From an uncultured Flavobacteriales bacterium (GTDB lineage Bacteria > Bacteroidota > Bacteroidia > Flavobacteriales_D > CAJJDF01): 64,000 nt of DNA. Below are positions 3,072 to 45,041 of the stretch, piece by piece; position 1 is the first letter of the stretch; each line of letters opens with the position of its first letter. The position numbers and the translations under genes are program-made. Under the pieces are notes generated by a model. It saw nothing but the letters and a program-made list of their open reading frames with translations. It made no database searches and was not told where the DNA came from. Location of the stretch: the NCBI GenBank assembly GCA_938009745.1, contig CALLII010000025.1, positions 586 to 64,585 of the forward strand. The letters are read 5' to 3'.

Positions 3072-3261
3072 TTAGTTACTTCTTTGTTTAATGCACTACA
3101 ACAATAGGATAAACACCACTAGTGACGTTTATATCGGTTGTATATCAAATATAAAGAATTAATTCTAAACCTTTTTTAATTTTATAAATTGTTAATAATC
3201 AATATAATAACACTAGATTAAACGTTTAATTTACTGCTAATATTTATAATGGAGTTTAATT

Positions 3262-19925: not shown

Positions 19926-19931
19926 AATGGT

Positions 19932-20858
19932 TTATTGTCTCAAGTAATCGTAATTGGCGTTTCGAATTTTAAATCGTAATCTAGTTTTTTTTGTATTAAA
20001 CTTCCCTTTTTTAAAATAGGCGATTGGAGGATTTTCTATCACTATTTTTTTTCCTTTTATGGTATAATTACAGATATATTCTTCTCCTGTAGTAGTAACT
20101 ATCCTTACTTGGTTTTTAGTGTATTGTTTTAAATCAAATTGAAATTCATAACCAACACCATTTATTACTTTAGGACACTTTAAGTTCGATACCAAAAAAT
20201 CATTGTTTGTAGTGTCAACAATTTTCCTGTGAATTTTTTCTTTTATAGCATCAGTGGAAGAACTTCTATTTCCAGTGTTCCACAAACCTGATGTAATTGT
20301 GTCGTCAAGTAATGTCACATTTAAATAGGTATCAATTTTTGTTTTACTAGTTTTTGTGCCTTGTATTTTCTCCTCTTTAAGGAACATAACTACAGGTGAA
20401 TCTTTTCTCTTAAGCTCATAAACTTTAGAGTCGTAGTAATATTCTCTATATATCGAATCTGTTATCTTTCTTGGGATTTTCAGCTTTACATAGTCAAGAG
20501 CTCCCCTCTTTTGCATCCTTCTTATTTTAGCAAAAAACCTTCTAGAATCCGATCGTTTATATTTCTTCTTAAGCTTTTCAGGCAAGGCTTCATTAAATAC
20601 ATACATCCTGCTACCTGATAATAAAACATTGTCATTTAAAAATCCATACAACTTAGGAAGAGTATGTTCTTTACCTTTATAAAGCCTAGCTTTGGTAGTC
20701 GAGTCTACTTTTTTTATTACAGTAATTATTGTATCGAATTCTACGTATTTCCTTACCACAATAACCCCGCGATTCATTGCAAGGTTATTGGAATCTAATT
20801 GTTGACCAAAATTTGAGAAAGCACAGGTCAAAAAGATTATGGTGGCAAGGGTTTTCAT
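19932..20858 (-). CDS. Hypothetical secreted basic protein, paralog A of the ECF-sigma operon
   Basis: 308 aa. Signal peptide, then GVIVVRK. 3-nt gap from the upstream gene. Confidence 0.6.
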   Translation of the reverse strand: MKTLATIIFLTCAFSNFGQQLDSNNLAMNRGVIVVRKYVEFDTIITVIKKVDSTTKARLYKGKEHTLPKLYGFLNDNVLLSGSRMYVFNEALPEKLKKKYKRSDSRRFFAKIRRMQKRGALDYVKLKIPRKITDSIYREYYYDSKVYELKRKDSPVVMFLKEEKIQGTKTSKTKIDTYLNVTLLDDTITSGLWNTGNRSSSTDAIKEKIHRKIVDTTNNDFLVSNLKCPKVINGVGYEFQFDLKQYTKNQVRIVTTTGEEYICNYTIKGKKIVIENPPIAYFKKGKFNTKKTRLRFKIRNANYDYLRQ

Positions 20859-20861
20859 AGT

Positions 20862-22559
20862 TTATCCTCCTATTATTTCACGTATTTCTGAAGTTGTTTT
20901 TCCTTTAATATCTACAACCTTCATTTTAAAAGTATGGGCTTCTTGTCCTTTTTCAATTTCTTTAAAATCTTCTGTGTCTGCAACAGCAATCATGCCATCT
21001 AGAGTAATTCCCCATAATAAATTGTTTCGTTTAGGGTTAAAAGGCAATCTACCTATTCTTGAAGCATCTAATGGAAAACAAGCATTTCTAGTTTTCTCTA
21101 CTAAGTCTAATTTAGTAAACTCAATAGTTTCGCCAGTTTCCTCATCTTCATAATTAGTCAAAACTATCATTCCTTCTGGGTAAGGAATAGGGGAGTCGCA
21201 GTTCCATGTTCCAAATCTGTTGATGTTAAATATTCTTTTTAATTCATCCCTTGCAGCTGCTTGGAACTTCATTTTACTTCTCATTGCAGCCACTCTTCTT
21301 TCGTAAGCTTCTTGCTCTTTTTTATATCGTTCTTTTATTTTAGATAGATTTATTTCAGCTTGTTTTTCTTCTTCTTTTTTAGCTGTTAGTTTTGTGCTGT
21401 AATCTGTAAACCTTGAGTCAAATTCTTTTTTGGCTTCATCATAGTCTTTGCCATCCAATACAGGAATTACTTTTATTTCTTCTTTTCTCTCTCCCTTTTT
21501 CAATTGAACTATGTATGAGTTATTTTTCTCTAATAATTCAACTCCATTCCAAGTAACAGAGTAAGTATCTTCTGGCATTTCTGATTTATCTACTACTTCA
21601 AATATGGTTCCTGCGTATACTACCAATTCTGGAAACTCAGTTTTCTTTACATCAATTGTAAAGTTTTTCTTTTCTGGATTTGCCTTCAATGGTTTTCTAG
21701 GAGATTCTTTTTTCAAAGTTTTAATCTCTTTTTTAATAACCGCAACAACTTCTTCAGCTTCAACTATTTTTATTTCCTTTTCTTCTACGTCAATTACTTT
21801 GGCTATGTTTTCTTCAATAGGTTCATCTTTTGTTGAGCCTTGTTCAGTTTTAGGATTATCTATAGAATCTTTTCCTTCATAACTCCATTTTTCCTTTTCT
21901 TCATCTAAGTAATACAAGTTAAATTTCGGGTCTGGATTTTTGGAATGCATACAAATTCTGAAGTTTTTATCTGGAACAATTTTCAGTCTCTTTCCATCTT
22001 GGTATCCTCTTATCTCCATCATTCCAGCAGATTCGAAAACTTGTTCTTTTCCAGCAGAATCATAATCCATTGGTATTCCACTAAGGAAAATCTCTGTTTG
22101 ATTGTGGAATTCACGGTATTGTACTTCTACTTTTCCTGTTACAATTTTTCCGTCTTCATCCATAAATGCACCTTCTGGGATAGTAATTTCAGTCCCTGTG
22201 TGGTGTTTTATTTTACCTCCATTATCTGCATCTACATAATACGATTCGTTAGGAATGTCAGCCTCAGGAATAGGTGGATTTACAAAAACTGATTTAGACA
22301 CTGTATCGGTAACTTGTGCAACTAGTGTTTCTGATTCTTGAACTAATTGTTCAGTATCTGGTTTTGTTCCAATATAAATACCAGCAGCAATTGCAATGGC
22401 AGCAATTCCTCCTGCAAACCAACCTGTGCTTTTGCCAGTTGGCTTTGGTGCAACAGAACCTGCTCCGCCAACTTTGCTAGCCAAAGATCCAAAGTCTTTA
22501 GTTGCATTTATTTCCTCTTTGGCAAGTGGTTTTCTGTCTATGTTAATGTTTCTTTTCAT
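20862..22559 (-). CDS. Single-pass membrane protein, candidate anti-sigma/sensor partner of the adjacent ECF sigma factor
   Basis: 565 aa. A ~45-aa cytoplasmic N-terminus, a TM helix (WFAGGIAAIAIAAGIYIG), a large extracytoplasmic part with a K/E-rich coiled segment, and a Cys-containing C-terminal domain. The call rests on position directly downstream of the sigma gene. No ZAS motif was seen. Confidence 0.55.
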   Translation of the reverse strand: MKRNINIDRKPLAKEEINATKDFGSLASKVGGAGSVAPKPTGKSTGWFAGGIAAIAIAAGIYIGTKPDTEQLVQESETLVAQVTDTVSKSVFVNPPIPEADIPNESYYVDADNGGKIKHHTGTEITIPEGAFMDEDGKIVTGKVEVQYREFHNQTEIFLSGIPMDYDSAGKEQVFESAGMMEIRGYQDGKRLKIVPDKNFRICMHSKNPDPKFNLYYLDEEKEKWSYEGKDSIDNPKTEQGSTKDEPIEENIAKVIDVEEKEIKIVEAEEVVAVIKKEIKTLKKESPRKPLKANPEKKNFTIDVKKTEFPELVVYAGTIFEVVDKSEMPEDTYSVTWNGVELLEKNNSYIVQLKKGERKEEIKVIPVLDGKDYDEAKKEFDSRFTDYSTKLTAKKEEEKQAEINLSKIKERYKKEQEAYERRVAAMRSKMKFQAAARDELKRIFNINRFGTWNCDSPIPYPEGMIVLTNYEDEETGETIEFTKLDLVEKTRNACFPLDASRIGRLPFNPKRNNLLWGITLDGMIAVADTEDFKEIEKGQEAHTFKMKVVDIKGKTTSEIREIIGG

Positions 22560-30773: not shown

Positions 30774-33700
30774 ATGAAGCAGTTAGTAATTTTCTTATTC
30801 CTTTTATCCCCTTTTTTTGGATTTAATCAAAATTCAGAATCTTATCAATTTATTGAAAATAAAGGTCAATGGAATGAAAATGTTCAGTTTAAAACTGATA
30901 TTTCAGCAGGTAATCTTTATTTAGAAGCAAATAAAATTACCTACGATTTTTATAATCAAGAAGAAGTTGAAACTTATTTTCATGCTCACAATTCGCACCT
31001 TCTCCGAAAGGAAATAACAAAATTTAGAGCACATTCTTACCAAGTTGAGTTTATAGGTGGAAATGCTACAAGCATTAGGCCTACTGAAAAAAATATTGAA
31101 TATTACAATTATTTTATTGGTTCAGACAAAAGTAAATGGGCAAACAAAGTTTCAAGTTTCAACAAAATTAGATATGAAAACCTTTATAAATCAATTGATT
31201 TAATTTTTTATTCTAATTACGAATCATTAAAGTATGATTTCGTACTAAAACCTTCGGCAGATCCTTCTAATATTAAACTACTATACAATGGAGTTGATAA
31301 TATTAAGTTGTTAAAAGGGAGGTTAGTAATAAAGACATCAGTAAATAAAGTAATTGAAGAAAAACCTTATGCTTATCAAATTATTGATGGTGAAGAAATA
31401 GAAGTTGAATGTGAGTATACTTTATCTAACAATGTTTTAGGTTTTACTTTTCCTAGTGGATATGATAAAAGCAAAGAACTAATTATTGATCCTACTTTAA
31501 TTTTTTCTACATTTTCTGGTTCTACATCTAATAATTTTGGGTACACGGCCACATTTGATAGAGATGGATTTCTATATTCTGGATCAACTGTGTTTGGACC
31601 AACATACCCAACAACTATAGGAGCATATGATGTAACTTTTGATACCAATGGGATTGTTGATATTGCAATTACTAAATACGATACTACTGGAACATTCATG
31701 GTGTATTCTACTCTAGTTGGTGGTAATAGTGATGAGTTGCCGCACAGTATGATTGTAAACTCTAATGACGAAATCTTCGTTTATGGAACTACTAGTTCCA
31801 CTGATTTTCCTTTCACAACTGGTTGTTATGATTCGGTTTTTAATGGTGGTACAGCATTAAATTTAACCAATGGACTTGGAGTTAATTTTGTGAATGGATC
31901 GGATATATTTGTACTAAGATTAAGTCAAGCCGGAGATAACTTATTGTCATCAACATATGTTGGTGGTTCTGGGAATGACGGCTTAAATTCTACTTTAACC
32001 AATGATTTACGATATAATTATGCAGATGAGGTAAGAGGTGAAATAGAAATTGACAAAAACAATAACATTTATGTTGTTTCCTGTACTCGTTCCATAAACT
32101 TCCCAGTAACTGCTGGTGTTTTTCAGCCTACTCACGGAGGGAATGATTTAGATGGTGTTATTTTTAAAATGGATAATAAACTAACCACACTTATTTGGTC
32201 ATCTTATTTGGGAGGTAATGGAGATGATGCTGCTTACTCTGTAGCTCTTGATAGAAATGATAATGCTTATGTTGCTGGTGGTACAAACTCTAATAATTTT
32301 ATAAAATCAGCCAATGCTATTGATACATCCTATACAGGTGTTAGGGCAGATGGATTTATTACAAAAATAAACATAACTGGTTCAACAGTTTTAGCCTCTA
32401 CTTATTATGGTACAGATGCTTATGACCAGATTTATTTTATAGAGTTAGATAGAAGGGACAGTGTATATGTCTTTGGTCAAACTGATAAAATGGATTCTTC
32501 TTTTATAAAAAATGCAGGATATTTTACTTTTAATAGTGGTCAGTTTGTGACTAAAATGTCGCCAAATTTAGATACTATAGAATGGTCAACAGTTTTCGGT
32601 TCTGGAGGGGGAGGACCAAATATTTCTCCAACAGCTTTTCTGGTAGATGTTTGTAACAAAATTTATTTATCTGGTTGGGGAGGCGCTACAAACTTATTTG
32701 GAACAACAAATAATGCAATTACTACCACTGGAATGGATGTAACAGCAGGGGCATTTCAAACTACTACTGATGGTAGTGATTTTTATTTGATGGTACTTGA
32801 AAGTGATGCTTCCAATATTTTTTATGGTTCATTTTTTGGAGGTAACCAAAGTGACGAGCATGTAGATGGTGGAACAAGTCGATTCGATAGAAACGGTAGA
32901 ATGTATCAATCTGTTTGTGCAGGTTGTGGAGGTAATTCTGATTTCCCTATATTTCCATCTCCAGGGGCACACTCAGATACCAATGGAAGTAGCTGTAATA
33001 ATGCGGTATTCAAATTCGATTTTAATTTACCAATTACATTAGCAGATTTTAATCACAATCCAGTTTCTTGCCTTGGCGACACTACTTTTTTTACTAACAG
33101 AAGTTTAAGAGGAACTTCTTTTCAATGGTTTTTTGGTGATGGAACAGGTTCAACTGCTTACAGTCCATTTCATATTTATTCCAATCCAGGTAATTTTACC
33201 GTAACTCTCATAGTTTCAGATACATCTGCTTGTAATTTTTCTGATACTATTAGGAAGCAAGTAACTATTCTATCCGATTCATCATGGATGCTAGCTAACG
33301 ATACCATATGTGACAGTAGTTTTAAGCAAATAGGTTTTTTGCCTTCAACAAATCCTACAATAACATACAATTGGTCTCCAGGTATTGGGCTAAGTGATTC
33401 TACTATTTCTAATCCAATTGCATCTCCAATTAATACAACAACCTACCAGCTGTTAATTTCTAATGGAATTTGTACAGATACGGTTTCATTAACTGTTGTT
33501 GTTACTAAACTACAACTATTAGTTCCTAATGATACAACACTCTGTATTCCTGGCACACCAATCTCTATTTCTGCTAATACTTTTGGAACAACCAATGTGT
33601 ATCAATGGTCGTCTAACCCATTATTTACAGACACAATAAACACTAGTTTAGGTAATCCAGTTTTAACTGTTTCACCTAATATTTCAACAACTTATTTTAT

Positions 33701-34523
33701 AAGAGTAGGTAACAATAGTTGTTTTTTAGAAGACACAGTACGAGTGAATGTGTTTGCTTCTCAATTTTCAATCACAGGCCCAGATGCAGTTTGTTTTGGA
33801 GATACATTTCAATTATCCGTTATATCCAATAGCACTGATTCATTAACCTATAATTGGAGTCCAAACCCAGAGATAATTACGGGAGATTTTACACCAACTA
33901 TTTCTACAAGTCCTAATGGAACCACAATTTATTCCGTTACGATTACAAGTTCTCAAGGGTGTGTAATTACTTTAACCAAAAGGGTGTACGTTTCTCCCTT
34001 GCCAACAATGGCCTTGGGGGCTTCAGCAGATAGAGACACTATTTTTGAAGGGCAATCCGTTCAATTGAGTGCATTGCCATCTGGTTTTGCTTATTCTTGG
34101 ACTCCCTCAAGCACATTAAATAATTCAACTTCTCAAAATCCAATTGCTTCACCATCAAGTACTACAACTTATCGTGTAAGAGTTACCGATACAGGTTGTG
34201 TTCGAACAGCTACAATAACAATCTATATTTTAGATGTTATTTGCGGGCCACCTGATTTATATATCCCAAATGCATTTACACCAAATGGAGATGGCGATAA
34301 TGATGAATTACTTGTAAGAGGAAATAACATTACAAGCATGACTTTAAGAGTTTATCATAGATGGGGTGAAAAGGTGTTTGAAACAAGTGATCAAAATGAA
34401 GGCTGGGACGGAACCTACAAAGGAAAAGAATGCGATCCAGCTGTTTTTGTTTATTATTTGGATATAGAATGTAAAGGAGGAGAAACCTATCAAGAGAAAG
34501 GAAATGTAAGTTTGATTAGATAA
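30774..34523 (+). CDS. Large T9SS type-B cargo protein: SBBP beta-propeller repeats, a PKD domain, Ig-like repeats and a CHU_C/type-B sorting domain
   Basis: Signal peptide. Repeated ...FPxTxGxxQ...GGxDxFxxK... SBBP-like units. PKD-like WFFGDGTGS...HIYSNPGNFTVTLIV. C-terminal YIPNAFTPNGDGDNDEL...GWDGTYKG...VFVYYL...GNVSLIR. Confidence 0.85.
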   Translation: MKQLVIFLFLLSPFFGFNQNSESYQFIENKGQWNENVQFKTDISAGNLYLEANKITYDFYNQEEVETYFHAHNSHLLRKEITKFRAHSYQVEFIGGNATSIRPTEKNIEYYNYFIGSDKSKWANKVSSFNKIRYENLYKSIDLIFYSNYESLKYDFVLKPSADPSNIKLLYNGVDNIKLLKGRLVIKTSVNKVIEEKPYAYQIIDGEEIEVECEYTLSNNVLGFTFPSGYDKSKELIIDPTLIFSTFSGSTSNNFGYTATFDRDGFLYSGSTVFGPTYPTTIGAYDVTFDTNGIVDIAITKYDTTGTFMVYSTLVGGNSDELPHSMIVNSNDEIFVYGTTSSTDFPFTTGCYDSVFNGGTALNLTNGLGVNFVNGSDIFVLRLSQAGDNLLSSTYVGGSGNDGLNSTLTNDLRYNYADEVRGEIEIDKNNNIYVVSCTRSINFPVTAGVFQPTHGGNDLDGVIFKMDNKLTTLIWSSYLGGNGDDAAYSVALDRNDNAYVAGGTNSNNFIKSANAIDTSYTGVRADGFITKINITGSTVLASTYYGTDAYDQIYFIELDRRDSVYVFGQTDKMDSSFIKNAGYFTFNSGQFVTKMSPNLDTIEWSTVFGSGGGGPNISPTAFLVDVCNKIYLSGWGGATNLFGTTNNAITTTGMDVTAGAFQTTTDGSDFYLMVLESDASNIFYGSFFGGNQSDEHVDGGTSRFDRNGRMYQSVCAGCGGNSDFPIFPSPGAHSDTNGSSCNNAVFKFDFNLPITLADFNHNPVSCLGDTTFFTNRSLRGTSFQWFFGDGTGSTAYSPFHIYSNPGNFTVTLIVSDTSACNFSDTIRKQVTILSDSSWMLANDTICDSSFKQIGFLPSTNPTITYNWSPGIGLSDSTISNPIASPINTTTYQLLISNGICTDTVSLTVVVTKLQLLVPNDTTLCIPGTPISISANTFGTTNVYQWSSNPLFTDTINTSLGNPVLTVSPNISTTYFIRVGNNSCFLEDTVRVNVFASQFSITGPDAVCFGDTFQLSVISNSTDSLTYNWSPNPEIITGDFTPTISTSPNGTTIYSVTITSSQGCVITLTKRVYVSPLPTMALGASADRDTIFEGQSVQLSALPSGFAYSWTPSSTLNNSTSQNPIASPSSTTTYRVRVTDTGCVRTATITIYILDVICGPPDLYIPNAFTPNGDGDNDELLVRGNNITSMTLRVYHRWGEKVFETSDQNEGWDGTYKGKECDPAVFVYYLDIECKGGETYQEKGNVSLIR
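34260..34520 (+). other. Region encoding the T9SS type-B (gliding-motility-associated, CHU_C-like) C-terminal sorting domain
   Basis: YIPNAFTPNGDGDNDELLVRG...RWGEKVFE...GWDGTYKGKECDPAVFVYYLD...GNVSLIR. Confidence 0.8.
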
Positions 34524-35045: not shown

Positions 35046-38000
35046 GTGAAAAAAACTATTTTAAATATCTCTTTTTTGCTTTTTGTATTTCTTTTTGGAA
35101 TACAGTTAAATAGCTTTGGCTCCCATTTTATGGGGTCCACATTATCCTACACTTGCACTGGTCCTAACCAATACCTAGTTACCTTAAAAGCTTATCGTGA
35201 TTGTGGAGGGATAACAATGCCACCTTCTTTTAGTGTTGCTTATAATGGTTGTGGAAGTTCTGGTAGTGTAACTGTGGCTTTACAAAGTTCTTCAGATATT
35301 TCTCCACTTTGTCCAACTTTAACCAGTATTTGCTCTGGCGGTTCATACCCATTTGGTTTAGAAGAACATATCTATACAGGTACAGTTACCGTCCCAGCTA
35401 ATTGTGCTAGTGTGATTTTTTCCACCTCTTCTTGTTGTAGAAACGGAAGTATTACAAATATTTCAATTCCTGGTTCTATAGGATTTTATACCAGTTCATT
35501 TCTAAATAATAATTTAACTACTTGTAATAGCTCCCCTACGTTTGCATCAGAACCAGCCCTATATACATGTTTAAATCAGTCTGTTGTTTTTCAGCAATTA
35601 GCAACCGATTCAGATGGCGATTCCTTAGTGTATTCTTTGGTAAATTGCCTACAATCTCCAGCAACAAGTGTTCCTTATGCTCCAGGATTTAGTGGAGTAA
35701 ATCCATTGACTACTCCTGTAACAATTGATCCTAATACAGGTGATTTATCTTTCACTGCTACTGCAATTCAAGTTGCATCTGTAAGTGTTTTAGTAGAAGA
35801 ATATAGGGCGGGAATTAAGGTTGGAGAAATTGTTCGCGATATGCAATTTACTATTCTCAATTGTTCCAATACTCTGCCGCAACTATCTGGTATTAATGGA
35901 GCTTCAGGAATATATTCTGTTAATACTTGCGAAGGTGCACCTATCTGTTTTAACATAAACGCAACTGACATAAATGCTGTTGATAATCTTTCAATGTTTT
36001 ATTCAGGAAATATTCCTGGAGCTACATTTACACAAACTGGAACCGGAAATAATCGTGTTGGTACTTTTTGTTGGACACCACCAATCGGTTCAGCAGGAAC
36101 TTATGTGTTTTCATTAGGAGTATTTGATGATGCTTGTCCAATTATTGGTCAAAATTCTAGATCATATATAGTAAATGTAAACTCAAATCCCAATACACCT
36201 ATTTCTGTAAGTGCAGATGTAGGAATTTGTTCGGGTTCAACCACAACACTTTTAGCTACTAATGTTACCCCTAACATTTCTTGGTCGCCTTCATTAGCAC
36301 TTTCAACAACTTCAGGAACTAGCACAAATGCATCTCCAACTTCAACAACAACCTACACTGCAACAGCTATTTACCCTGATGGCTGTAGTTCAAGTGATGA
36401 TGTTACTGTAACGGTTAATCCTGATCCAGTTGCCAATATTAGTCCTTCTTCTGCTAGTGTTTGCCCAGGAGGAAATATAACACTTACAGGTACTACAAAT
36501 TCTACAGGAATGACTTTCCAATGGTTCAATCCTTCAATGGGAGGTTTAGGCTCGGGAACGGTATCAGGAACTTCATCTAGTATTGTAGTATCAGTTCCTG
36601 CTGCTTCAGGTACTTATAATTATACTCTCCGAATTACTAATCCATCTACAGGATGTTCTTCTGATGCGATAGTTCCTTTATCAGTAGGAGCTCCTCCTAC
36701 TTTAGCTTCTTGTATTAATATATATGTTACACCTACGGGGTCATCTGCTGCTGCTGGTACACAGGCTAATCCTACAAATTTGGTTGAAGCACTAAGTCGA
36801 AGTGCTTGTCAAGGAGCAGTGATAAAAATGGCTATAGGAACTTATAATTTTAATAATGCAATCAATCTTCAAAGTTTTGTTACGATAGAGGGTGGTTTTG
36901 ATCAATTTTTTGGATGGAGAAAAACTAGCCAGCCAGGCGCAACTACAATCAATCGAACAACAGCAAGTCCAGAAGGATCAACAAATGCTCAAAGACTTGT
37001 AGCTTTTTATGGAAATAGTGCAACAGGTTTTAGATTACAAGATATTACTGTTAGAACTTCAGCAGCAAATCAGCCAGGTATGTCTACTTATGGTTTGCAT
37101 TTAACCTCTTGTTCTGATTATGATATTGTAAGATGTCAAATTCAGCCGGGAAATGCTGCTGCAGGTAGAAATGGAACAAATGGAACAAATGGAAACATAG
37201 GAAGGAATGGAGGGCGTGGATCAGCAGGTGACGGTAATGATTATGATGATTCTGGAGGAGGAGGAGGAGGAGGAGGAGGGGGAGGAACAACTGTTGGTAA
37301 TGCAGGTACTAATGCAAGCGGTAATTATAATTCGGCTAATAACTGCACTATAGCTGGTGGTAATGGTGGTGGTGGTGGTGCAACTGCTGGTAATGGTGGT
37401 AATGGTAGAGGCGATTCAAATGGTTGTGGTTGTTGTAATGCAGGTTCACAAGGTTATACAGGTGGTTCATCTTCAAATTCTCGAAGTGGTGGTGGTGGTG
37501 GTGGTGGTGCAAATGGTGGTTGCGAAGATGAAAATGGTGGCCGTGGTGGAAACGGAGGAGGTGTTTTAAGTGTCTATGGGTCAAATCTTGGTGGTGGTAA
37601 TGGTGGTAATGATGGAGGGAATGGTGGTGGTTATCCTGGAAGTAACGGTACTGCTGGTTCAAATGGTACTCTTGGATCTAATGGTGGTCTTGGTTCTAAT
37701 GGTTCGCATGTTGGGGGATTCTGGTCTCCAGGTAGTCAAGGGGGCAGTGGCAGTGATGGTAGTGGTGGTAGTGGTGGTGCAGGTGGCGGTGGTGGCGGTG
37801 GACAAGACTGTTTCTTTTGTTCTGATGGATGTGGTTCTGGAGGAGGAGGTGGTGGTGGTGGTGGCCAAGGAGGCCAAGGTGGTACTGGTGGTCGAGGAGG
37901 AGGATCCTCCTACGGGGTATATCTTTTCTCAAATGGTGCAAATGGAATAATTAATCAAAGTTTTGTAGATGCAGGGAATGCAGGTGGAGGTGGTACTCCA

Positions 38001-41000
38001 GGTACAGGCGGTACAGGTGGTGCAGGTGGTCTTGGTGGTAGTGGAAGCCCTTATACTGGTGGTGGAGAAGTTGGAGCAGGTGGAAATGGTGGACGAGGCG
38101 GAAATGGTGGATTAGGTCGAAGTGGTGGTGCTGGTCGTGCTGGTCAAACTATTGATGTTTACAGAGTAAGTGGTGCTTTTTTAACAACTCAGGTTACAAC
38201 ATTCAATCTTGCTGCCCAAACTACAATTACAGCTAGTAATGTAAATTGCACCAATACCAATGTAAATTATACAACAACATCTGCAAGTACGTGGGATTTT
38301 GACAGAGTCACCAATTATGCAACTCCTGCTACAGCAGGATCATCAAGTAACACTAATACTCAATATTCTCAAATAGCTCGTTATACTTTATCCAGAGGAG
38401 CTCATATTTATGAAGGATTTCATAATATTTCTTTTGATGGTTCATTAGCACCAGAAATAACAACTAATGCAGATTCAATTGGAGTCGATACTTTTCAGCT
38501 TTGCCAAGGAGATTTTGCAACTTTTAGCAGTGTGTATTCAGGATTAACTTATATATGGAATTTTAATGGAGCAATTACAAACCCAGGAACAACAGTTCAA
38601 AATACTCCTTCAATACAATTTAACACTCCTGGCTTTTATACTATTACACTTAGAACAACATCAGATTGTTGTGGACTATCTCCTACCAAAACAATTTATC
38701 TATATGTAGATGCATTACCAACAGTTACTGGGTCTGGTGCGGGTGCCATTTGTGAAGGTGAGAATAGAACTTTAACATTGACTGGTTTAGCAGTTAGTGA
38801 TAGTGTGATTTGGACACCCACTACTAATATTGTTTCTTCTACAACCAACACTATTACAGTTAGCCCATCAACAACTACAACTTATACTGCTTCTATTTAT
38901 ACTAAAACAATAGCGAGTGGTGTTACAAGATTAAGTTGTCCTATTTCTCGTCCACTTACAGTAACTGTGAGTCCAATCCCAACTATTGCTTTGACATTAA
39001 CGCAACCAAATTGCGGTAATAATGGACAAATTGTTGCCAATATTACTTCTGGGGGAGGGCTTTATAATTTTTCATGGTCTAATGGAGTATTTAGCTTTAA
39101 TTCCACCTCTTCTACAAATGGAAGTATTGGTGTAGGGTCATATTCTGTTACAGCAACTAACACTATTACAGGTTGTTCAGTTACGGACACTGTTTTCTTA
39201 TTCCCAGCTCCTGGATCACCTATCGTTTCAGTTCAAAATACTACCCCTGCAACTTGTGGCCTTAATAATGGTACTGCCAATGTTCTTGCATCAGGCGGAA
39301 CCGGACCTTATACTTATACTTGGAGTACTGGCGGTACAGGGACTAGTCGCACAAATTTAGCTGCTGCTACTTATTGTGTAACAGCTACTGATAATCTTGG
39401 ATGTCCTACTACAATATGTTTTGATATAACAACTCCAGATACTTTAAAAGTATCTCTATTATCTAGCAGTAACTTGATTTGTGCCAGTGATAGCAATGGT
39501 ACTGCTAAGGTAGAAGCAACAGGAGGTCAACCTATCTATACCTATCTTTGGTCTAATGGAGAAACAGGAGATTCTGCTTCTTCATTACCCGTAGGTACTT
39601 CTTATGTTATTGTTTCTGATTCCTCAGGATGTACTGATTCTCTTTCTTTTGTTTTGTTGGCTACCGGTCCTTCTACGAGTTCTACTCAAACTATAACAGT
39701 TTGTGATAGCTTGATTTCGCCAAGTGGAAAAATTTGGCGAACAGCAGGGACCTATTTTGATACAATCCCAAATTCAACTGGTTGTGATAGTTTATTAACT
39801 ATTACAGTTTCAATTTCTCCTGTAATCAACACGATTGATTCTATTACTGCTTGTGATTCGTTAACTTGGATAAATGGAATTACATATTACGCTAACAATA
39901 CAGCTGCAAAAGATACATTGTCTTCAATCCAAGGATGTGATTCTATTGTGAGTTTGAGTTTAATTATTAATAATACTTCAAGCTCAACTCAAACCGTTAC
40001 AGTTTGTGATAGCTTATTGTCTCCTAGCGGAAAAACTTGGAATACAACTGGCACTTATCTCGATACCATTATGAATGCTAGTGGTTGTGATAGCTTAATC
40101 ACTTTTAATCTTACAGTAAACTTTACATCAAGTTCTACTCAAACTTTAACTGTTTGTGATAGTTTAATATCTCCAAGTGGAAAAATTTGGTCAACATCCA
40201 ATACTTATTTAGATACAATTTTAAATGCAACTGGTTGTGACAGTCTAATGACATTTAATCTGACAGTAAACTACACGACTAGTTCAACTCAAACATTAAC
40301 AGTTTGTGATAGTTTAGTATCTCCAAGCGGAAAAATTTGGTCAACAACTGGCAATTATTTTGATACTATATTAAAAGCTAATGGGTGTGATAGTTTACTT
40401 ACATTTAACTTGACAATAAATACTACTTCAAGCTCAACTCAAACCCTTATAGTTTGTGATAGTTTAATATCTCCAAGTGGAAAAACTTGGAATACAACTG
40501 GCAATTATCTCGATACCATTATGAATGCTGGTGGTTGCGATAGTTTAATGACTTTTAATCTTACAGTAAACTTTACATCAAGTTCTACTCAAACAATAAC
40601 AGTTTGTGATAGTTTAATTTCTCCAAGCGGAAAAATTTGGTCAACAACAGGAACCTATCTTGATACAATTTCTAATTCATCAGGATGTGATTCATTACTT
40701 ACAATAAACCTTACAGTTTCCTCTACAATAAATAGTATAGATTCAGTTTTAGTATGTGATTCTCTTATTTGGATAGATGGAGTTACTTATTACACAAATA
40801 ATAATACAGCAAAAGACACATTGCCATCTTATCAAGGGTGTGACTCAATTATTACCTTGAATCTGACAGTAAACTATACTACAAGTTCTACTCAAGCAAC
40901 AACAATATGCGATAGCATGATCTCTCCAAGTGGTAAAATTTGGTCAACATCTGGAATATATCTAGACACGATAACAAATTCAAGTGGGTGTGATAGTTTA

Positions 41001-44000
41001 ATGACATTTAATTTGATAGTAAATAATACTTCAAGCTCAACTCAAACTTTAACAGTTTGTGATAGTTTGTTATCTCCAAGTGGAAAAACTTGGAATTCGA
41101 CAGGAACCTATTTGGATACTATTTTAAATGCAGCTGGCTGCGACAGTCTAATGACTTTTAATCTAACAGTAAACTTTAATTCCAGTTCCACTCAAACTAT
41201 TACTGTTTGTGACAGCTTTGTTTCGCCATCAGGAAAAACTTGGAATAATTCTGGAATGTACTTAGATACAATATTAAATACTTCGGGTTGTGACAGTTTA
41301 ATGACTTTTAATCTAACAGTAAATTATACCATTAGCATTACACTGACAGACACCTCATGTGACCAGTTTTTATGGCGTTCAAATAATCTAACTTCTTCAG
41401 GCACTTATTATGATACTGCAACTACAGGTTTTTGTGACAGTATTTTTACTTTAAACCTTACACTATTTAATTCAGTAGATAATTGGCAAAGTTTTATTGG
41501 GTGTGACAGTCTGCTTTTACCAAACGGAAATACAGTATTTTTCAGTGGTACATACAGAGATACTTTTTCAACAGTTAATGGATGTGATAGTATTCACAGG
41601 TATCAAGTAACCATGAGATCTACAATAATTACTAATGTTATCAATAGTTCTTGTGATAGTTTTACCAGTCCAAACGGACAAGTTTGGACTACTTCAGGAA
41701 TCTATGCAGATACTTTTAATACTGCGGGTGTTTGTGATAGCTTAGTCATTTATAATTTAACCATTAATTATACTACTTCCTCAATCCAAAACCTTACAGT
41801 TTGTGATAGTTTAATTTCTCCTTCTGGGAAATTTTGGAATAGCTCTGGAATATACTTGGACACAATAACAAGCAACTCAGGTTGTGATAGTTTAATGACT
41901 TTTAATCTTACTGTAAATTACACTTCAACTTCTTCAATATCCTTGACAGTTTGCGATAGTTTATTCTCTCCATCAGGGAAAATATGGAGATCAAATGGAG
42001 TCTATCTAGATACAATTTCTAATGTTTCTGGATGTGATAGTTTAATGACTTTTAATTTAACATTGAGTAATTACGCTCAAATTCCTTCAACCTTAAATGC
42101 TTGTGATAGTATTTCTTGGAGAGGAAGTTGGTATTCTAGTACTGGAATTTATAATGATTCTGTAATAGTTCCGGGTTGTGATACCGTTTTTATCTTAAAT
42201 CTTACTATTAATAACTCTAGTTCATCTGCTCAAACGATAACAGTTTGCGATAGTTTAGTGTCTCCAACTGGAAAAACTTGGAATACAACAGGAACTTATA
42301 GCGACACAATAGCCAATGCAATTGGTTGCGATAGTTTAATGACATTTAATTTGACGGTAAATTATACAACTAGTTCGTCTCAAACAATTACCGTTTGTGA
42401 TAGTATAGTCTCACCAAGTGGTAAAACTTGGAATACCACTGGAATTTACCTGGATACACTAGTAAAACCAAATGGATGCGATAGTCTTATGACGTTTAAT
42501 CTTACAGTTAACTATACTTCAAGCTCTTCTCAAATGATATCAGTTTGCGATAGTTTTGTTTCTCCAAGTGGAAAAATTTGGACTGCTACTGGTAATTATT
42601 TGGATACAATTCTAAATGCTTCAGGTTGCGATAGCTTATTAAGTATTAACCTTACAATAGCTCCAATTGCAAGAATTCCTCTAACAATAACAATTTGCGA
42701 TAGTGTTGTGTGGAGAGGTGTTACTTATACCACTACTGGAAATTATTCTGATACGCTATTAGTTGCAGGATGCGACACAATTTTTGACTTAAGCTTAACA
42801 GTAAATTACACTACAACTTCAAGTCAAACACTTACGGTTTGCGATAGTCTATTGTCTCCAAGCGGAAAAACTTGGAATACAACTGGTACTTATTTTGATA
42901 CAATTTTAAACTCAACTGGATGTGATAGTTTGATGACATTCAATCTTACAATAAACTACACAACAAGTTCTACTCAATTCTTAACAGTATGTGATAGTCT
43001 ATTATCGCCAAGTGGAAAAACATGGAATACTACAGGAACTTATTTAGATACAATAACTAAAACTGACGGATGTGATAGCTTAATAACATTTAATCTTACT
43101 GTGAATTCCACAACAAATTCATCCCAATCTATTACAACCTGCGATAGTTTATTATCACCAAGTGGAAAAATTTGGAGAACATCAGGAATCTATTTAGATA
43201 CTATATTAAACTCAAATGGTTGTGATAGTTTAATGACATTTAATTTAATTATAAACTTTACAACAAGTTCTACTCAAACTTTATCAGTTTGTGATAGCCT
43301 ATTGTCTCCAAGCGGAAAAACTTGGAATACAACAGGAATTTATTTGGATACAATTTTAAACTCATCTGGATGTGACAGTTTAATGACATTCAATCTTACA
43401 ATAAACTACACAACAAGTTCTACTCAAACCTTAACAGTATGCGATAGTCTATTGTCGCCAAGTGGAAAAATATGGAGTACCACAGGAACTTATTTAGATA
43501 CAATAACTAAAACTGATGGATGTGATAGTCTGATGACATTTAATCTTACTGTCAATTCTACAACAAATTCATCCCAATCTATTACAACCTGCGATAGTTT
43601 ATTATCACCAAGTGGAAAAATTTGGAGAACATCAGGAATCTATTTAGATACTATATTAAACTCAATTGGTTGTGATAGTTTAATGACATTTAATTTAACC
43701 ATTAGTGGGTTTATTCCTATTACAACTTCTGTTACAGCTTGTGATAGCTTAACTTGGAGAGGAGTAACTTATACTTCTTCTGGTACATATAATGATACTG
43801 TTTTAATACCTGGGTGTGATACCATTTATACATTGTCATTAGTAATAAATAATAGTTCAACCTCTATAATTAATCCAATATCATGTGGTCCGTACTCATC
43901 ACCAAGTGGAAAATCATATTCTACCTCAGGGAACTATTTAGATACTATTTCTAACACAATAGGTTGTGACAGTATAATTACCATTAACCTTATTGTAGAT

Positions 44001-45041
44001 ACAGTTTCTTATATTTCTGTTCTTGCATCTGGTTGCGACAGCTTTCAATTACCAGGAGGAACAATAGTATATACTTCAGGAGCATACAATGACACACTAA
44101 CCAATATAAGTGGTTGTGATAGTATAATTACAACCAATCTGTTTTTATCTCCTTCGTATAATCAATCCAACACCTTTAATTTATGTGCAGGGCAAACAGT
44201 TACAGTTGGAGCAAATATTTATGGAAGCACTGGAATTTACAGAGATACACTAGCTACTGCTTTTGGTTGTGATTCAATAATAGAAACTAACTTAACAATT
44301 AACCCACTTGTTTTAGGAACAATAACTTTTAGTAGTAATTTATGTCAAAATGATTTGCCAGCTACTTTCACTGCAACACCAATTGGTGGAAGATGGATTG
44401 GGACAGGTATAGATACAATTACTGGGGTTTTCTCACCTGCAATAGCGGGAGTAGGTATACACACAATTGTTTATATTCCAAATGGACCATGCCCATTGCC
44501 AGATACAGTTCAAGTTAATGTATTCTCAGTCCCAGTAATCAATTTTGATGAAACAGATGAGCTGTGTGATCAAGCTAATGGAGAAATTGATGTTACCATA
44601 ACAGGAGGAACACCAGCCTATATTTATAATTGGAGTAATGGTGACAGTACTCTTAATATTTCAAATCTAAAAGAAGGCTCATATTCTTTAATAGTATCGG
44701 ATGCTAATAACTGTTCAAATTCAGACAATACATCTCTAATAAATATTATAGATCCAGATTGTGAATTTGGTATTTATGTTCCAAACGTTTTCTCTCCTGA
44801 TGGCAATCAAGAAAACGACTTATTTTATGTGCAAGGATCAGGCATTGAAACTGTTAAGCTTGTCATATTTAATAGATATGGGAATAAAGTTTTTGAATCA
44901 AATGCAATTGGAGGAGGATGGGACGGAACCTATAAAGGGTCTCCAGTAAATCCAGATGTATTTGTTTACTATGTAGAAGGAACCTTTGTTAATGGAGAAG
45001 AATTTGAGAAAAAAGGAACAATAACTTTAATCAGGAGGTAG
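35046..45041 (+). CDS. Giant (3331 aa) T9SS type-B cargo/adhesin-like protein, GTG start
   Basis: One uninterrupted 9996-nt ORF. In order: signal peptide; Cys-rich N-domain (GSHFMGSTLSYTC...YRDCGG); cadherin-like TDSDGDSLVYSL; Ig-like modules; beta-helix-like YVTPTGS...NPTNL segment; Gly-rich region; PKD-like module; SprB-type repeats (CGNNGQIVANITSGGG.YNFSWSNG, CGLNNGTANVLASGGTGPYTYTWS, and others); 31 'CDS' repeats; type-B sorting domain. Confidence 0.85.
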   Translation: MKKTILNISFLLFVFLFGIQLNSFGSHFMGSTLSYTCTGPNQYLVTLKAYRDCGGITMPPSFSVAYNGCGSSGSVTVALQSSSDISPLCPTLTSICSGGSYPFGLEEHIYTGTVTVPANCASVIFSTSSCCRNGSITNISIPGSIGFYTSSFLNNNLTTCNSSPTFASEPALYTCLNQSVVFQQLATDSDGDSLVYSLVNCLQSPATSVPYAPGFSGVNPLTTPVTIDPNTGDLSFTATAIQVASVSVLVEEYRAGIKVGEIVRDMQFTILNCSNTLPQLSGINGASGIYSVNTCEGAPICFNINATDINAVDNLSMFYSGNIPGATFTQTGTGNNRVGTFCWTPPIGSAGTYVFSLGVFDDACPIIGQNSRSYIVNVNSNPNTPISVSADVGICSGSTTTLLATNVTPNISWSPSLALSTTSGTSTNASPTSTTTYTATAIYPDGCSSSDDVTVTVNPDPVANISPSSASVCPGGNITLTGTTNSTGMTFQWFNPSMGGLGSGTVSGTSSSIVVSVPAASGTYNYTLRITNPSTGCSSDAIVPLSVGAPPTLASCINIYVTPTGSSAAAGTQANPTNLVEALSRSACQGAVIKMAIGTYNFNNAINLQSFVTIEGGFDQFFGWRKTSQPGATTINRTTASPEGSTNAQRLVAFYGNSATGFRLQDITVRTSAANQPGMSTYGLHLTSCSDYDIVRCQIQPGNAAAGRNGTNGTNGNIGRNGGRGSAGDGNDYDDSGGGGGGGGGGGTTVGNAGTNASGNYNSANNCTIAGGNGGGGGATAGNGGNGRGDSNGCGCCNAGSQGYTGGSSSNSRSGGGGGGGANGGCEDENGGRGGNGGGVLSVYGSNLGGGNGGNDGGNGGGYPGSNGTAGSNGTLGSNGGLGSNGSHVGGFWSPGSQGGSGSDGSGGSGGAGGGGGGGQDCFFCSDGCGSGGGGGGGGGQGGQGGTGGRGGGSSYGVYLFSNGANGIINQSFVDAGNAGGGGTPGTGGTGGAGGLGGSGSPYTGGGEVGAGGNGGRGGNGGLGRSGGAGRAGQTIDVYRVSGAFLTTQVTTFNLAAQTTITASNVNCTNTNVNYTTTSASTWDFDRVTNYATPATAGSSSNTNTQYSQIARYTLSRGAHIYEGFHNISFDGSLAPEITTNADSIGVDTFQLCQGDFATFSSVYSGLTYIWNFNGAITNPGTTVQNTPSIQFNTPGFYTITLRTTSDCCGLSPTKTIYLYVDALPTVTGSGAGAICEGENRTLTLTGLAVSDSVIWTPTTNIVSSTTNTITVSPSTTTTYTASIYTKTIASGVTRLSCPISRPLTVTVSPIPTIALTLTQPNCGNNGQIVANITSGGGLYNFSWSNGVFSFNSTSSTNGSIGVGSYSVTATNTITGCSVTDTVFLFPAPGSPIVSVQNTTPATCGLNNGTANVLASGGTGPYTYTWSTGGTGTSRTNLAAATYCVTATDNLGCPTTICFDITTPDTLKVSLLSSSNLICASDSNGTAKVEATGGQPIYTYLWSNGETGDSASSLPVGTSYVIVSDSSGCTDSLSFVLLATGPSTSSTQTITVCDSLISPSGKIWRTAGTYFDTIPNSTGCDSLLTITVSISPVINTIDSITACDSLTWINGITYYANNTAAKDTLSSIQGCDSIVSLSLIINNTSSSTQTVTVCDSLLSPSGKTWNTTGTYLDTIMNASGCDSLITFNLTVNFTSSSTQTLTVCDSLISPSGKIWSTSNTYLDTILNATGCDSLMTFNLTVNYTTSSTQTLTVCDSLVSPSGKIWSTTGNYFDTILKANGCDSLLTFNLTINTTSSSTQTLIVCDSLISPSGKTWNTTGNYLDTIMNAGGCDSLMTFNLTVNFTSSSTQTITVCDSLISPSGKIWSTTGTYLDTISNSSGCDSLLTINLTVSSTINSIDSVLVCDSLIWIDGVTYYTNNNTAKDTLPSYQGCDSIITLNLTVNYTTSSTQATTICDSMISPSGKIWSTSGIYLDTITNSSGCDSLMTFNLIVNNTSSSTQTLTVCDSLLSPSGKTWNSTGTYLDTILNAAGCDSLMTFNLTVNFNSSSTQTITVCDSFVSPSGKTWNNSGMYLDTILNTSGCDSLMTFNLTVNYTISITLTDTSCDQFLWRSNNLTSSGTYYDTATTGFCDSIFTLNLTLFNSVDNWQSFIGCDSLLLPNGNTVFFSGTYRDTFSTVNGCDSIHRYQVTMRSTIITNVINSSCDSFTSPNGQVWTTSGIYADTFNTAGVCDSLVIYNLTINYTTSSIQNLTVCDSLISPSGKFWNSSGIYLDTITSNSGCDSLMTFNLTVNYTSTSSISLTVCDSLFSPSGKIWRSNGVYLDTISNVSGCDSLMTFNLTLSNYAQIPSTLNACDSISWRGSWYSSTGIYNDSVIVPGCDTVFILNLTINNSSSSAQTITVCDSLVSPTGKTWNTTGTYSDTIANAIGCDSLMTFNLTVNYTTSSSQTITVCDSIVSPSGKTWNTTGIYLDTLVKPNGCDSLMTFNLTVNYTSSSSQMISVCDSFVSPSGKIWTATGNYLDTILNASGCDSLLSINLTIAPIARIPLTITICDSVVWRGVTYTTTGNYSDTLLVAGCDTIFDLSLTVNYTTTSSQTLTVCDSLLSPSGKTWNTTGTYFDTILNSTGCDSLMTFNLTINYTTSSTQFLTVCDSLLSPSGKTWNTTGTYLDTITKTDGCDSLITFNLTVNSTTNSSQSITTCDSLLSPSGKIWRTSGIYLDTILNSNGCDSLMTFNLIINFTTSSTQTLSVCDSLLSPSGKTWNTTGIYLDTILNSSGCDSLMTFNLTINYTTSSTQTLTVCDSLLSPSGKIWSTTGTYLDTITKTDGCDSLMTFNLTVNSTTNSSQSITTCDSLLSPSGKIWRTSGIYLDTILNSIGCDSLMTFNLTISGFIPITTSVTACDSLTWRGVTYTSSGTYNDTVLIPGCDTIYTLSLVINNSSTSIINPISCGPYSSPSGKSYSTSGNYLDTISNTIGCDSIITINLIVDTVSYISVLASGCDSFQLPGGTIVYTSGAYNDTLTNISGCDSIITTNLFLSPSYNQSNTFNLCAGQTVTVGANIYGSTGIYRDTLATAFGCDSIIETNLTINPLVLGTITFSSNLCQNDLPATFTATPIGGRWIGTGIDTITGVFSPAIAGVGIHTIVYIPNGPCPLPDTVQVNVFSVPVINFDETDELCDQANGEIDVTITGGTPAYIYNWSNGDSTLNISNLKEGSYSLIVSDANNCSNSDNTSLINIIDPDCEFGIYVPNVFSPDGNQENDLFYVQGSGIETVKLVIFNRYGNKVFESNAIGGGWDGTYKGSPVNPDVFVYYVEGTFVNGEEFEKKGTITLIRR
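37149..38145 (+). repeat. Glycine-rich low-complexity coding region with in-frame GGN triplet tracts
   Basis: About 335 aa, about half Gly by eye. Tracts are (GGA)8+GGG+(GGA)2 at 37254-37286, (GGT)7 at 37488-37508, and (GGA)3(GGT)5GGC at 37839-37865, all in the gene's frame. GC content is locally elevated. Confidence 0.85.
39661..44300 (+). repeat. Tandem array of 31 coding repeats of ~150 nt (~50 aa), each with two Cys-Asp-Ser motifs
   Basis: Consensus is TVCDSL[IL]SPSGK[IT]WxT[TS]GxYLDTIxNxxGCDSLMTFNLTVN[YF]T[TS]SSTQT[LI]. Units were counted by hand from the translation. gtttgtgatagt recurs about every 150 nt. Confidence 0.9.
42941..43698 (+). repeat. Higher-order (3-unit, 450-bp offset) near-identical duplication inside the repeat array
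   Basis: 42941-43248 versus 43391-43698 differ at ~15 of 308 positions by hand count. 43111-43248 versus 43561-43698 differ at 1 of 138 positions. Confidence 0.8.
44775..45038 (+). other. Region encoding the T9SS type-B C-terminal sorting domain of the giant protein
   Basis: YVPNVFSPDGNQENDLFYVQG...RYGNKVFE...GWDGTYKGSPVNPDVFVYYVE...GTITLIRR. Confidence 0.8.

Follow-up and report, generated by a model that had tools for sequence, protein, structure and literature searches.

A two-cysteine tandem repeat outside the curated families, carrying a candidate O-glycosylation motif, in a type IX secretion cargo protein of the Bacteroidota

What is the module that makes up almost half of a very large secreted protein, and what might it do there? 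The question is raised by a 64,000-nucleotide (nt) stretch of DNA from an uncultured Flavobacteriales bacterium (GenBank contig CALLII010000025.1, positions 586 to 64,585 of the forward strand; hereafter the window), in which one open reading frame (ORF) encodes a 3331-residue type IX secretion system (T9SS) cargo protein. An earlier sequence-only reading of the window had described 31 tandem units of about 50 amino acids (aa) in this protein, each with two cysteines, and had proposed an undescribed adhesin or stalk module. The new elements of the present analysis are an uncurated family and its apparent coincidence with an O-glycosylation sequon, the latter being the most interesting new point and one that is directly testable.

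The region aa 1548-3091 contains exactly 62 cysteines, which divide it into 31 head-to-tail units of 48-51 aa. The first and second cysteine of a unit (Cys1 and Cys2) are spaced by 27 residues, or by 25 or 28 in variant units, and Cys2 is spaced by 23 residues from the following Cys1, or by 22 in the last unit; the context C-D-[ST] is found at 59 of the 62 positions. Cysteine count and spacing thus bear out the repeat number, the ~27 and ~23 residue intervals and the C-D-S/T context originally claimed. The array accounts for 1544 of 3331 aa (46%, in keeping with the estimate of 'nearly half'), and the range first given for it, 39661-44300, lies within ~25 nt of the real edges at 39687-44318. 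An alignment of the 31 units with MAFFT (alignment A1) shows invariant C6, D25, C33 and D34, together with near-invariant D7, S8, G14, G21, Y23, T26, G32, S35 and L41. The resulting consensus, QTxTVCDSLxSPSGKxWxTxGxYLDTIxNxxGCDSLxTFNLTxN, agrees with the one proposed by eye, and the minority W-type flavour ('CDSxxW') does occur at units 2, 8, 12, 17, 21 and 28. Independently, Tandem Repeats Finder picks up the repetition at periods of 150, 300 and 450 nt (scores 383-1556).

No curated library examined (Pfam, NCBIfam) assigns this unit. Pfam-A (2025 copy) was scanned with the whole protein and with each of the 31 units singly, and NCBIfam (2026) with the whole protein. In Pfam-A, the whole protein matches CHU_C (aa 3244-3328) and, weakly, Ig_7 and PKD_4, the other hits being without a significant stretch; NCBIfam returns the T9SS type B sorting domain alone. 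The single units match nothing in Pfam-A except for one chance match to YadA_anchor (E 0.022). For the immunoglobulin (Ig)-like family Ig_7 (PF19081; gathering score 27.3 bits), 0 of 31 units match even at E<=10, and the whole-protein matches, at aa 464-547, fall outside the array. SprB (PF13573) has no match inside the array, its matches being confined to aa ~1323-1547 and 3170-3200, and the SprB motif 'NG..I...GG..PY.Y.W' is absent from the 31 units. No unit matches PKD (PF00801 / PF18911); the unit measures 50 aa, with three long strands in its model, as opposed to roughly 80-90 aa for the Ig-like sandwich of PKD. Cadherin and BIg families are without a match in Pfam-A, for whole protein and units alike, as are carbohydrate-binding module (CBM) and lectin families in the Pfam-A scans, the scans of homologues and a single-unit Foldseek search. 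The unit profiles A1 and A2 match no PDB sequence, and full-text literature searches found no description of the motif or the unit. The proposal that the unit lies outside the known repeat families is therefore upheld across Pfam-A, NCBIfam, the PDB profile searches and the literature; a match to a curated repeat family was looked for, and none was found.

A number of matches were rejected as spurious, because they comprise few or no significant stretches and are the sum of weak matches over many repeats. These are SF3b10 (27.4 in the window protein, against a cutoff of 27), Talin_R4, FbpC_C, PFU and YadA_anchor. When four array-rich homologues (P0141, P0115, P0124, P0179) were scanned against Pfam, only such summed-up chance matches were seen in the arrays, with FbpC_C_terminal reaching 127.7 bits with 0 significant stretches, PFU 77.8 and YadA_anchor 65.2. 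The source names 'trimeric autotransporter adhesin' and 'Laminin B' attached to array-rich proteins may stem from summed weak matches. A resemblance to the antibody light-chain 'GSGSGTDFTLTIS...YYC' was set aside as not significant. Pfam lists for the 120 best homologues (slightly newer release) reveal no common family other than two sorting domains.

The module is widespread among T9SS cargo proteins and is not rare. A search with the 1544-aa array yielded >4560 proteins at E<=1e-3 among the 8000 candidates listed; with the 50-aa unit profile as query, only short ORFs of <=90 aa were retrieved, which are probably fragments. When all of 1.84 billion cluster representatives were scanned by HMMER with a profile of three units, 34,561 proteins scored E<=1e-3, among them 24,678 with E<=1e-10 and 13,171 with E<=1e-30. 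The counts are of 50%-identity clusters, and the family extends to at least 34,561 of these; its largest protein spans 7061 aa. The best 120 homologues each contain between 13 and 45 units; the modal period is 51 aa. Type B tails (PF13585) are found in 57 of these, type A tails (PF18962) in 44 and neither in 19, several of which are partial. Because 44 of the 120 carry a type A tail, the module is not tied to type B sorting, and the idea that it always accompanies a type B domain has to be given up. The phyletic distribution could be followed through the source names, all of which are Bacteroidota (Flavobacteriales, Crocinitomicaceae, Salibacteraceae, Chitinophagales, Lewinellaceae, Phaeodactylibacter, Longitalea, Sunxiuqinia and Paludibacteraceae). 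At genome level, the window flavour is most closely related to Flavobacteriales metagenome-assembled genomes (MAGs) with 71-76% identity and to a Fluviicola MAG with 60%, in a search that used a three-unit block and detects close relatives only. Relatives of the unit are also present in two records that carry a phage label: a 1423-aa protein from an uncultured marine phage, BFVD entry A0A8D9FS04, with 30% identity and a Foldseek E of 4e-13, and GenBank LR745206.1, positions 579756-580232 (a 634,780 bp uncultured phage; tblastn 32%, E 8e-6). These could be true phage-borne copies or mis-binned Bacteroidota DNA.

A family consensus built from 1395 full-length homologue units reads t-[VI]-T-[IA]-C-D-S-Y-T-W-x-N-G-x-T-Y-T-x-S-G-T-Y-x-D-T-L-x-N-A-x-G-C-D-S-[IV]-[VI]-T-L-N-L-T-V-N. 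As this consensus has the W flavour, the 'CDSxxW' minority of the window is the family archetype and 'SPSGKxW' the flavour of a sub-lineage. The family-wide core consists of C6 (1.00), G21 (0.91), Y23 (0.80), G32 (0.91), C33 (0.99), D34 (0.94), S35 (0.97) and L41 (0.95).

The segment following Cys2 is of particular interest. Non-cytoplasmic proteins of the Bacteroidota are O-glycosylated at the motif D-(S/T)-(A/I/L/V/M/T) (PMC8550257); occupancy of common-motif sites is generally close to complete, and motifs introduced by engineering are glycosylated as well (PMC12871550). The C-D-S context after Cys2 matches this sequon. In the array 87 sequons are found, at 5.6 per 100 aa, which is 11-fold over background: the other 30 large ORFs of the window have 0.51 per 100 aa, and the rest of the protein has 0.56. 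They occur after Cys1 in 24, mid-unit in 29 and after Cys2 in all 31 of the 31 units. Across 7663 distinct units of the family, a sequon stands right after Cys2 in 88%, mid-unit in 32% and after Cys1 in 4%; at least one is present in 97.5% of 7043 near-full-length distinct units (mean 1.5). In units that lack Cys2 ('G-[RVY]-D-S-[IV]', n=352), D-S-hydrophobic is kept in 91%. In units without a canonical post-Cys2 sequon (n=916), 52% have one within the next 9 residues, compared with 12% after shuffling, the displaced sequon typically being of the form 'GC[APT]S[VT]-D-T-L'. The tripeptide is thus conserved independently of both the disulfide and its exact position, which favours selection on the sequon itself. 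Being non-cytoplasmic and having 87 candidate sites, the window protein is, as judged from its sequence, a candidate Bacteroidota O-glycoprotein.

A conceivable, if still tentative, reading makes the unit a module dedicated to the display of glycans, in which the selected feature would be the sequon on a minimal disulfide-stapled beta scaffold. If true, arrays of 13-45+ units would be bacterial 'mucin-like' stalks with dozens of species-specific O-glycans, and T9SS proteins of the Bacteroidota, in their tens of thousands, would use them to build a glycan coat, with possible uses in gliding lubrication, in shielding against proteases and phages, and in self-recognition.

Conserved positions of the unit lend themselves to two other readings. 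The three invariant or near-invariant Asp per unit in the window protein (D7, D25 and D34) might bind Ca2+ at the unit junctions of a calcium-dependent rod, akin to cadherins or to the BIg repeats of an RTX (repeats-in-toxin) ice-binding adhesin, and weak Foldseek matches to a Marinomonas adhesin region (E 0.016-0.04) point the same way. However, only D34 is conserved family-wide (0.94), with D7 at 0.45 and D25 at 0.52; Glu is almost absent from the units (0.1%), cadherin and BIg matches are lacking in Pfam-A, and every conserved Asp is followed by S/T and a hydrophobic residue, which fits a sequon better than a Ca2+ site. We regard this as the least probable of the readings considered. Alternatively, the units could be multivalent ligand-binding modules (lectin-like or adhesive) with the aromatics of 'Y-T-W-x-N-G-x-T-Y ... 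G-x-Y' serving as binding platforms. These positions are conserved family-wide (Y9 0.46, W11 0.44, Y17 0.66, Y23 0.80), the units are found with very different N-terminal parts, and they sometimes form nearly the whole protein (as in P0141, whose 2310 aa hold 45 units), leaving little else for function. Yet most conserved aromatics in a 50-residue, three-stranded unit are likely core residues, proteins that consist almost wholly of the array are in many cases contig fragments, the Pfam scans and Foldseek gave no CBM or lectin family, and such surfaces would be hidden by dense glycosylation if that is real. A binding role of this kind is in our estimate unlikely.

AlphaFold2 predicts the unit with confidence. 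A single unit (129 alignment rows) gave a predicted local distance difference test score (pLDDT) of 94.0 and a predicted template-modelling score (pTM) of 0.68, while units 7-9 (98-row alignment) gave an all-beta model with a mean pLDDT of 92.3 and a pTM of 0.58. The single-unit model has strands at residues 2-10 (ending in Cys1), 25-32 and 38-48 (beginning directly after Cys2), with a two-residue hairpin, 13-14 / 20-21, around the 'SPSGK' turn; the model of the unit thus comprises three long strands and one small hairpin. When the single unit was compared with the PDB by Foldseek, nothing significant was found (best E 0.62), the partial overlaps being with Ig V-type, Rib and DnaJ C-terminal domains. 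Having no significant match, the single unit does not count among the standard Ig or PKD domains, and a trivially known fold, the outcome that the sequence-only reading had named as adverse to it, was not encountered. The arrays nevertheless look, in the models, like an Ig-type rod. For three units the only structures at E<=0.003 are the GhpA fragments 9fls, 9flp and 9flw (E 5e-4 to 3e-3; probability 0.98-1.0, TMq 0.36-0.42, identity 14-16%), with Rib and Ig rods following at E>0.01 (Rib etc. at E 0.02-0.05).

GhpA is a T9SS substrate with a stem of 52 Ig-like repeats, in which nearby domains are disulfide-linked and putative O-glycan densities are reported for every Ig-like domain (bioRxiv 10.1101/2024.01.29.577165). 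By sequence, the window protein matches GhpA at E 9.3e-6 via aa ~320-573 and the C-terminus, not via the array, and the best-matching stretch corresponds to the Ig_7 domains at aa 382-547. In the alignment of the two proteins the GhpA repeat has the pattern I-C-x-G ... Y-x-W ... G-x-Y ... G-C-x-S ... T-V-x-P; counted over the printed stretch, Cys1 and Cys2 of GhpA are 55 apart and the period is ~82. This is the pattern of the unit with ~30 extra residues in the middle. One could imagine from this resemblance that the array forms a multimerising shaft, with parallel protomers assembled into a rigid hollow filament as in a grappling hook or a fimbria-like appendage: the heptameric GhpA stem is the best solved-structure match of the three-unit model, the N-terminal Ig_7 domains and sorting domain are what match GhpA by sequence, and hooks resembling those of GhpA have been observed elsewhere in the Bacteroidota (bioRxiv 10.1101/2024.01.29.577165). 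Such an assembly is nonetheless improbable, since the sequence match falls outside the array, the GhpA repeats are ~82-85 aa rather than 50 aa in length, and no PorP/PorE-like genes of the ghpB/ghpC type adjoin.

The relation of the unit to the Ig-like repeats elsewhere in the same protein was assessed by profile-profile comparison (200 family units, hhalign local). Against SprB-type repeats the units scored a probability of 71% (P 3.9e-5, 24 columns), and against an Ig_7-type set 63% (P 7e-5, 30 columns); in the latter case only the F-G hairpin aligns, corresponding to unit positions 17-46. The Ig_7 set comprised 152 domains from an iterated hidden Markov model (HMM) search started from the Pfam-defined Ig_7 of the window, with all units masked and no motif filter. 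A reversed control gave P 0.13, and with the G strand trimmed off the Ig_7 set the score fell to P 0.0047. A first Ig_7 comparison (90% probability) was discarded as circular, the regular expression behind it having required 'G.Y...GC.S...V.V'. Our proposal, made with moderate confidence, is that the unit arose by miniaturisation of such an Ig-like (Ig_7/SprB-type) domain and would keep the Cys1 first strand and the Cys2 F-G hairpin; it is probably not a fold of its own, a pared-down Ig-like domain being more likely. The view that the units do not resemble the other repeats of the protein holds in so far as SprB, Ig_7 and PKD models of Pfam fail to match, but not for the last 30 residues, which resemble the Ig_7/SprB F-G hairpin. 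The SprB-type repeats themselves (38997-39686) find a PDB match in a decoration protein of a phage capsid, to whose Ig-like domain (8zvi, E 3.3e-4; 5lxk, E 2.7e-3) they align through the common 'GGTGPYTYxW' motif.

Two pairing schemes fit the parity of the cysteines: a staple within the unit (27 residues apart) or a ladder from Cys1 of unit n to Cys2 of unit n+1 (77 apart). Cys1- and Cys2-like residues flank the array (C1479/C1529 before, C3100/C3149 after), and therefore either scheme closes. Keeping the orientation of the Ig A, F and G strands would put Cys1 of unit n at its top and Cys2 of unit n+1 at its bottom; given that orientation, the inter-domain disulfides of GhpA would provide a precedent by analogy for the ladder. 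Cysteine co-loss across 9001 units is uninformative on pairing, with Cys2 lost 456 times and Cys1 29 times without loss of the partner. Many units of the P0235 cluster (Paludibacteraceae MAGs) have lost Cys2 and keep Cys1 and D-S, and the same is seen in P0243, P0269, P0244 and others.

Taking these observations together, we consider it probable (roughly 60%) that the array is a glycosylated, disulfide-stabilised stalk of pared-down Ig-like units within a T9SS surface protein. Relative to its presumed ancestor, the unit would retain the Cys1-bearing first strand along with the F-G hairpin 'G-x-Y ... G-C-D-S ... L-T-V-N', the ~30 residues between them having been lost. Sec would export the protein, and the cysteines would be oxidised in the periplasm, within units or as a ladder; the D-S/T-hydrophobic motifs would be O-glycosylated by the general system of the phylum at 2-3 sites per unit, up to ~87 in all; T9SS would then export the protein, which would be anchored via its type B C-terminal domain. 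The outcome would be a protease-resistant, sugar-coated spacer holding the N-terminal Ig-like, glycine-rich and PKD part off the cell surface. Were the units stacked end to end, each would add an estimated 3-4 nm or so, and the 31 together about 100 nm. The original suggestion of an undescribed adhesin or stalk module is thereby retained in part: a stalk fits the T9SS context and the resemblance to the GhpA stem, but the family is not rare.

Several points weigh against a glycosylated stalk of this type. The strand-initial D-S-[ILVT] could be conserved for folding alone, and the apparent retention of the sequon is inflated by the collecting HMM, which rewards D-S. The pTM of 0.58 for three units makes the orientation of the units, and hence the rigidity of the array, uncertain. 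The GhpA fold match has low TM-scores and may reflect generic beta-rod similarity, while the profile-profile matches to Ig_7 and SprB are modest (probability 63-71%) and concern one hairpin only. Finally, the gene neighbours checked in the window include no PorP/SprF-type partner.

The sequence-only reading had also seen in the irregular alternation of the two flavours a hint of an ancestral supra-repeat, an idea that the unit identity matrix contradicts. Units 22-24 and 25-27 are a recent duplication; units 3 and 6 are 92% identical at the nt level, units 1-2 and 7-8 are 75% and 69% identical, and among the remaining units identity ranges over 50-80% and follows no fixed offset. Because the matrix shows no uniform higher-order period, the flavours reflect piecemeal block duplications and not a single ancestral supra-repeat. 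Given this similarity between blocks, the number of units may be assembly-dependent.

Coordinates of the features are collected in Table 1. The N-terminus of the translated 3331-aa protein is hydrophobic, and the type B domain scores above the curated cutoffs (PF13585 47.2 bits, cutoff 27; TIGR04131 43.5 bits, cutoff 35). With signal peptide and sorting domain both in place, the whole protein is a T9SS type B cargo by sequence; an exact database look-up of it found no record. Its domain order is signal peptide, two Ig_7 domains, a ~540-aa region devoid of Pfam matches, a PKD_4-like stretch, three SprB repeats, the 31 units, an Ig-like domain with one further SprB repeat, and CHU_C. The last SprB repeat before the array terminates in 'GCTDSLSFVLL', a Cys2-like motif. 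The glycine-rich tract (37140-38170, aa ~700-1040) consists of G runs with N/S/T/A, e.g. 'GGGGGGGGGGTTVGNAG...', in which Tandem Repeats Finder locates several 9-18 nt GGN-type micro-repeats; the tract might form a beta-helix or serve as a flexible linker. Upstream of the array gene lie, besides a second T9SS cargo gene, genes for a MoxR ATPase and a peptidyl-prolyl isomerase (PPIase), and downstream purE, rpsG, fusA, rplC, rplD and, later, secY; the surroundings are an ordinary chromosomal region. Four consecutive ORFs further away on the minus strand (17348-22559; 527, 336, 308 and 565 aa) have no Pfam match at E<=1e-5.

Table 1 Positions of the features discussed, numbered from the first letter of the window
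Feature	Position	Strand	Details
Third T9SS cargo, further upstream	5464-7224		type A tail
Second T9SS type B cargo, immediately upstream gene	30774-34523	+	1249 aa; DUF7948, SBBP beta-propeller repeat, PKD, CHU_C
T9SS cargo ORF with the array	35046..45041	+	3331 aa; GTG start; N-terminal Sec-type signal peptide
Ig_7 x2 (CHU_C-associated Ig-like)	36189..36686	+	aa ~382-547; PF19081 E 5.6e-9
Region without Pfam match	36726..38345	+	aa 561-1100, ~540 aa; contains long glycine-rich tract
PKD_4-like weak match	38538..38699	+	aa 1165-1218; 21.8 bits, below Pfam cutoff 27
SprB-type Ig-like repeats x3	39012..39686	+	aa ~1323-1547; PF13573 E 5e-23; directly 5' of array
Two-cysteine array, 31 units	39687..44318	+	aa 1548-3091; 87 D-[ST]-[AILVMT] sequons
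Unit 2, W-type	39837..39989	+	51 aa, 'CDSLTWINGITYY'; flavour closest to family-wide consensus
Unit 8, W-type	40740-40892	+	
Unit 12, W-type	41343-41486	+	
Unit 17, W-type	42087-42230	+	
Unit 21, W-type	42681-42824	+	
Three-unit block duplication	42825..43724	+	units 22-24 vs 25-27, 90-91% nt identity; Tandem Repeats Finder period 450, 94% matches
Unit 28, W-type	43725-43868	+	
Ig-like domain + one SprB repeat	44319..44774	+	between array and sorting domain; SprB 44553-44645 (aa 3170-3200), PF13573 E 4.2e-10
T9SS type B C-terminal sorting domain (CHU_C / TIGR04131)	44775..45035	+	aa 3244-3330

The significance of the family lies in part in its size: tens of thousands of large Bacteroidota surface proteins that consist mostly of this unit are labelled 'hypothetical' or 'gliding motility-associated', and a curated model would mend their annotation, including the misleading names derived from summed weak Pfam matches. 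The sequon coincidence leads to a testable idea of function, namely that many O-glycans are displayed on a rigid spacer, and would link the general O-glycosylation system of the phylum with T9SS surface architecture. The apparent derivation from Ig_7/SprB domains would, if true, be a clear case of domain miniaturisation within repeat proteins.

A comparison with known systems places the array closest to several Bacteroidota precedents without making it identical to any of them. With the GhpA stem of Aureispira sp. CCB-QB1 it shares the status of a T9SS cargo, the long tandem array of small beta-domains (which would likewise form a stem); GhpA also gives the best Foldseek match for three units. 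In contrast, the repeats of GhpA have their cysteines 55 residues apart, compared with 27 in the window units, the unit profiles find no GhpA sequence match, the fold match remains at TM-scores of only 0.36-0.42, and no PorP/PorE-like genes of the kind of ghpB and ghpC adjoin the array gene. Ig_7 domains occur in the window protein and in the same protein class, and their F-G hairpin 'TYYV.a.n..GC.S....VTVTVnp' aligns with unit columns 17-46, Cys1 aligning globally; the unit is set apart by the missing ~30 residues, roughly strands B-E, and by the complete lack of matches to the Pfam Ig_7 model among the 31 units. SprB repeats flank the array on both sides, and their 'L-x-A-G-x-Y-x-V-x-V-x-D-x-N-G-C' parallels the unit's 'S-G-x-Y-x-D-T-x-x-N-x-x-G-C', although the unit is without the 'N-G-x-I ... 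G-G-x-x-P-Y-x-Y-x-W' hairpin that PF13573 models. Rib and other Gram-positive stalks of tandem beta-domains offer a functional analogy, as small-domain arrays that project a tip domain, and are weakly matched by Foldseek; they differ in having no sequence relation, in phylum and secretion route, and in lacking cysteines and sequons. With the O-glycosylation system of the phylum the correspondence is at the level of the motif: in a non-cytoplasmic protein, the most conserved motif of the family apart from Cys and Gly is exactly the tripeptide of the sequon.

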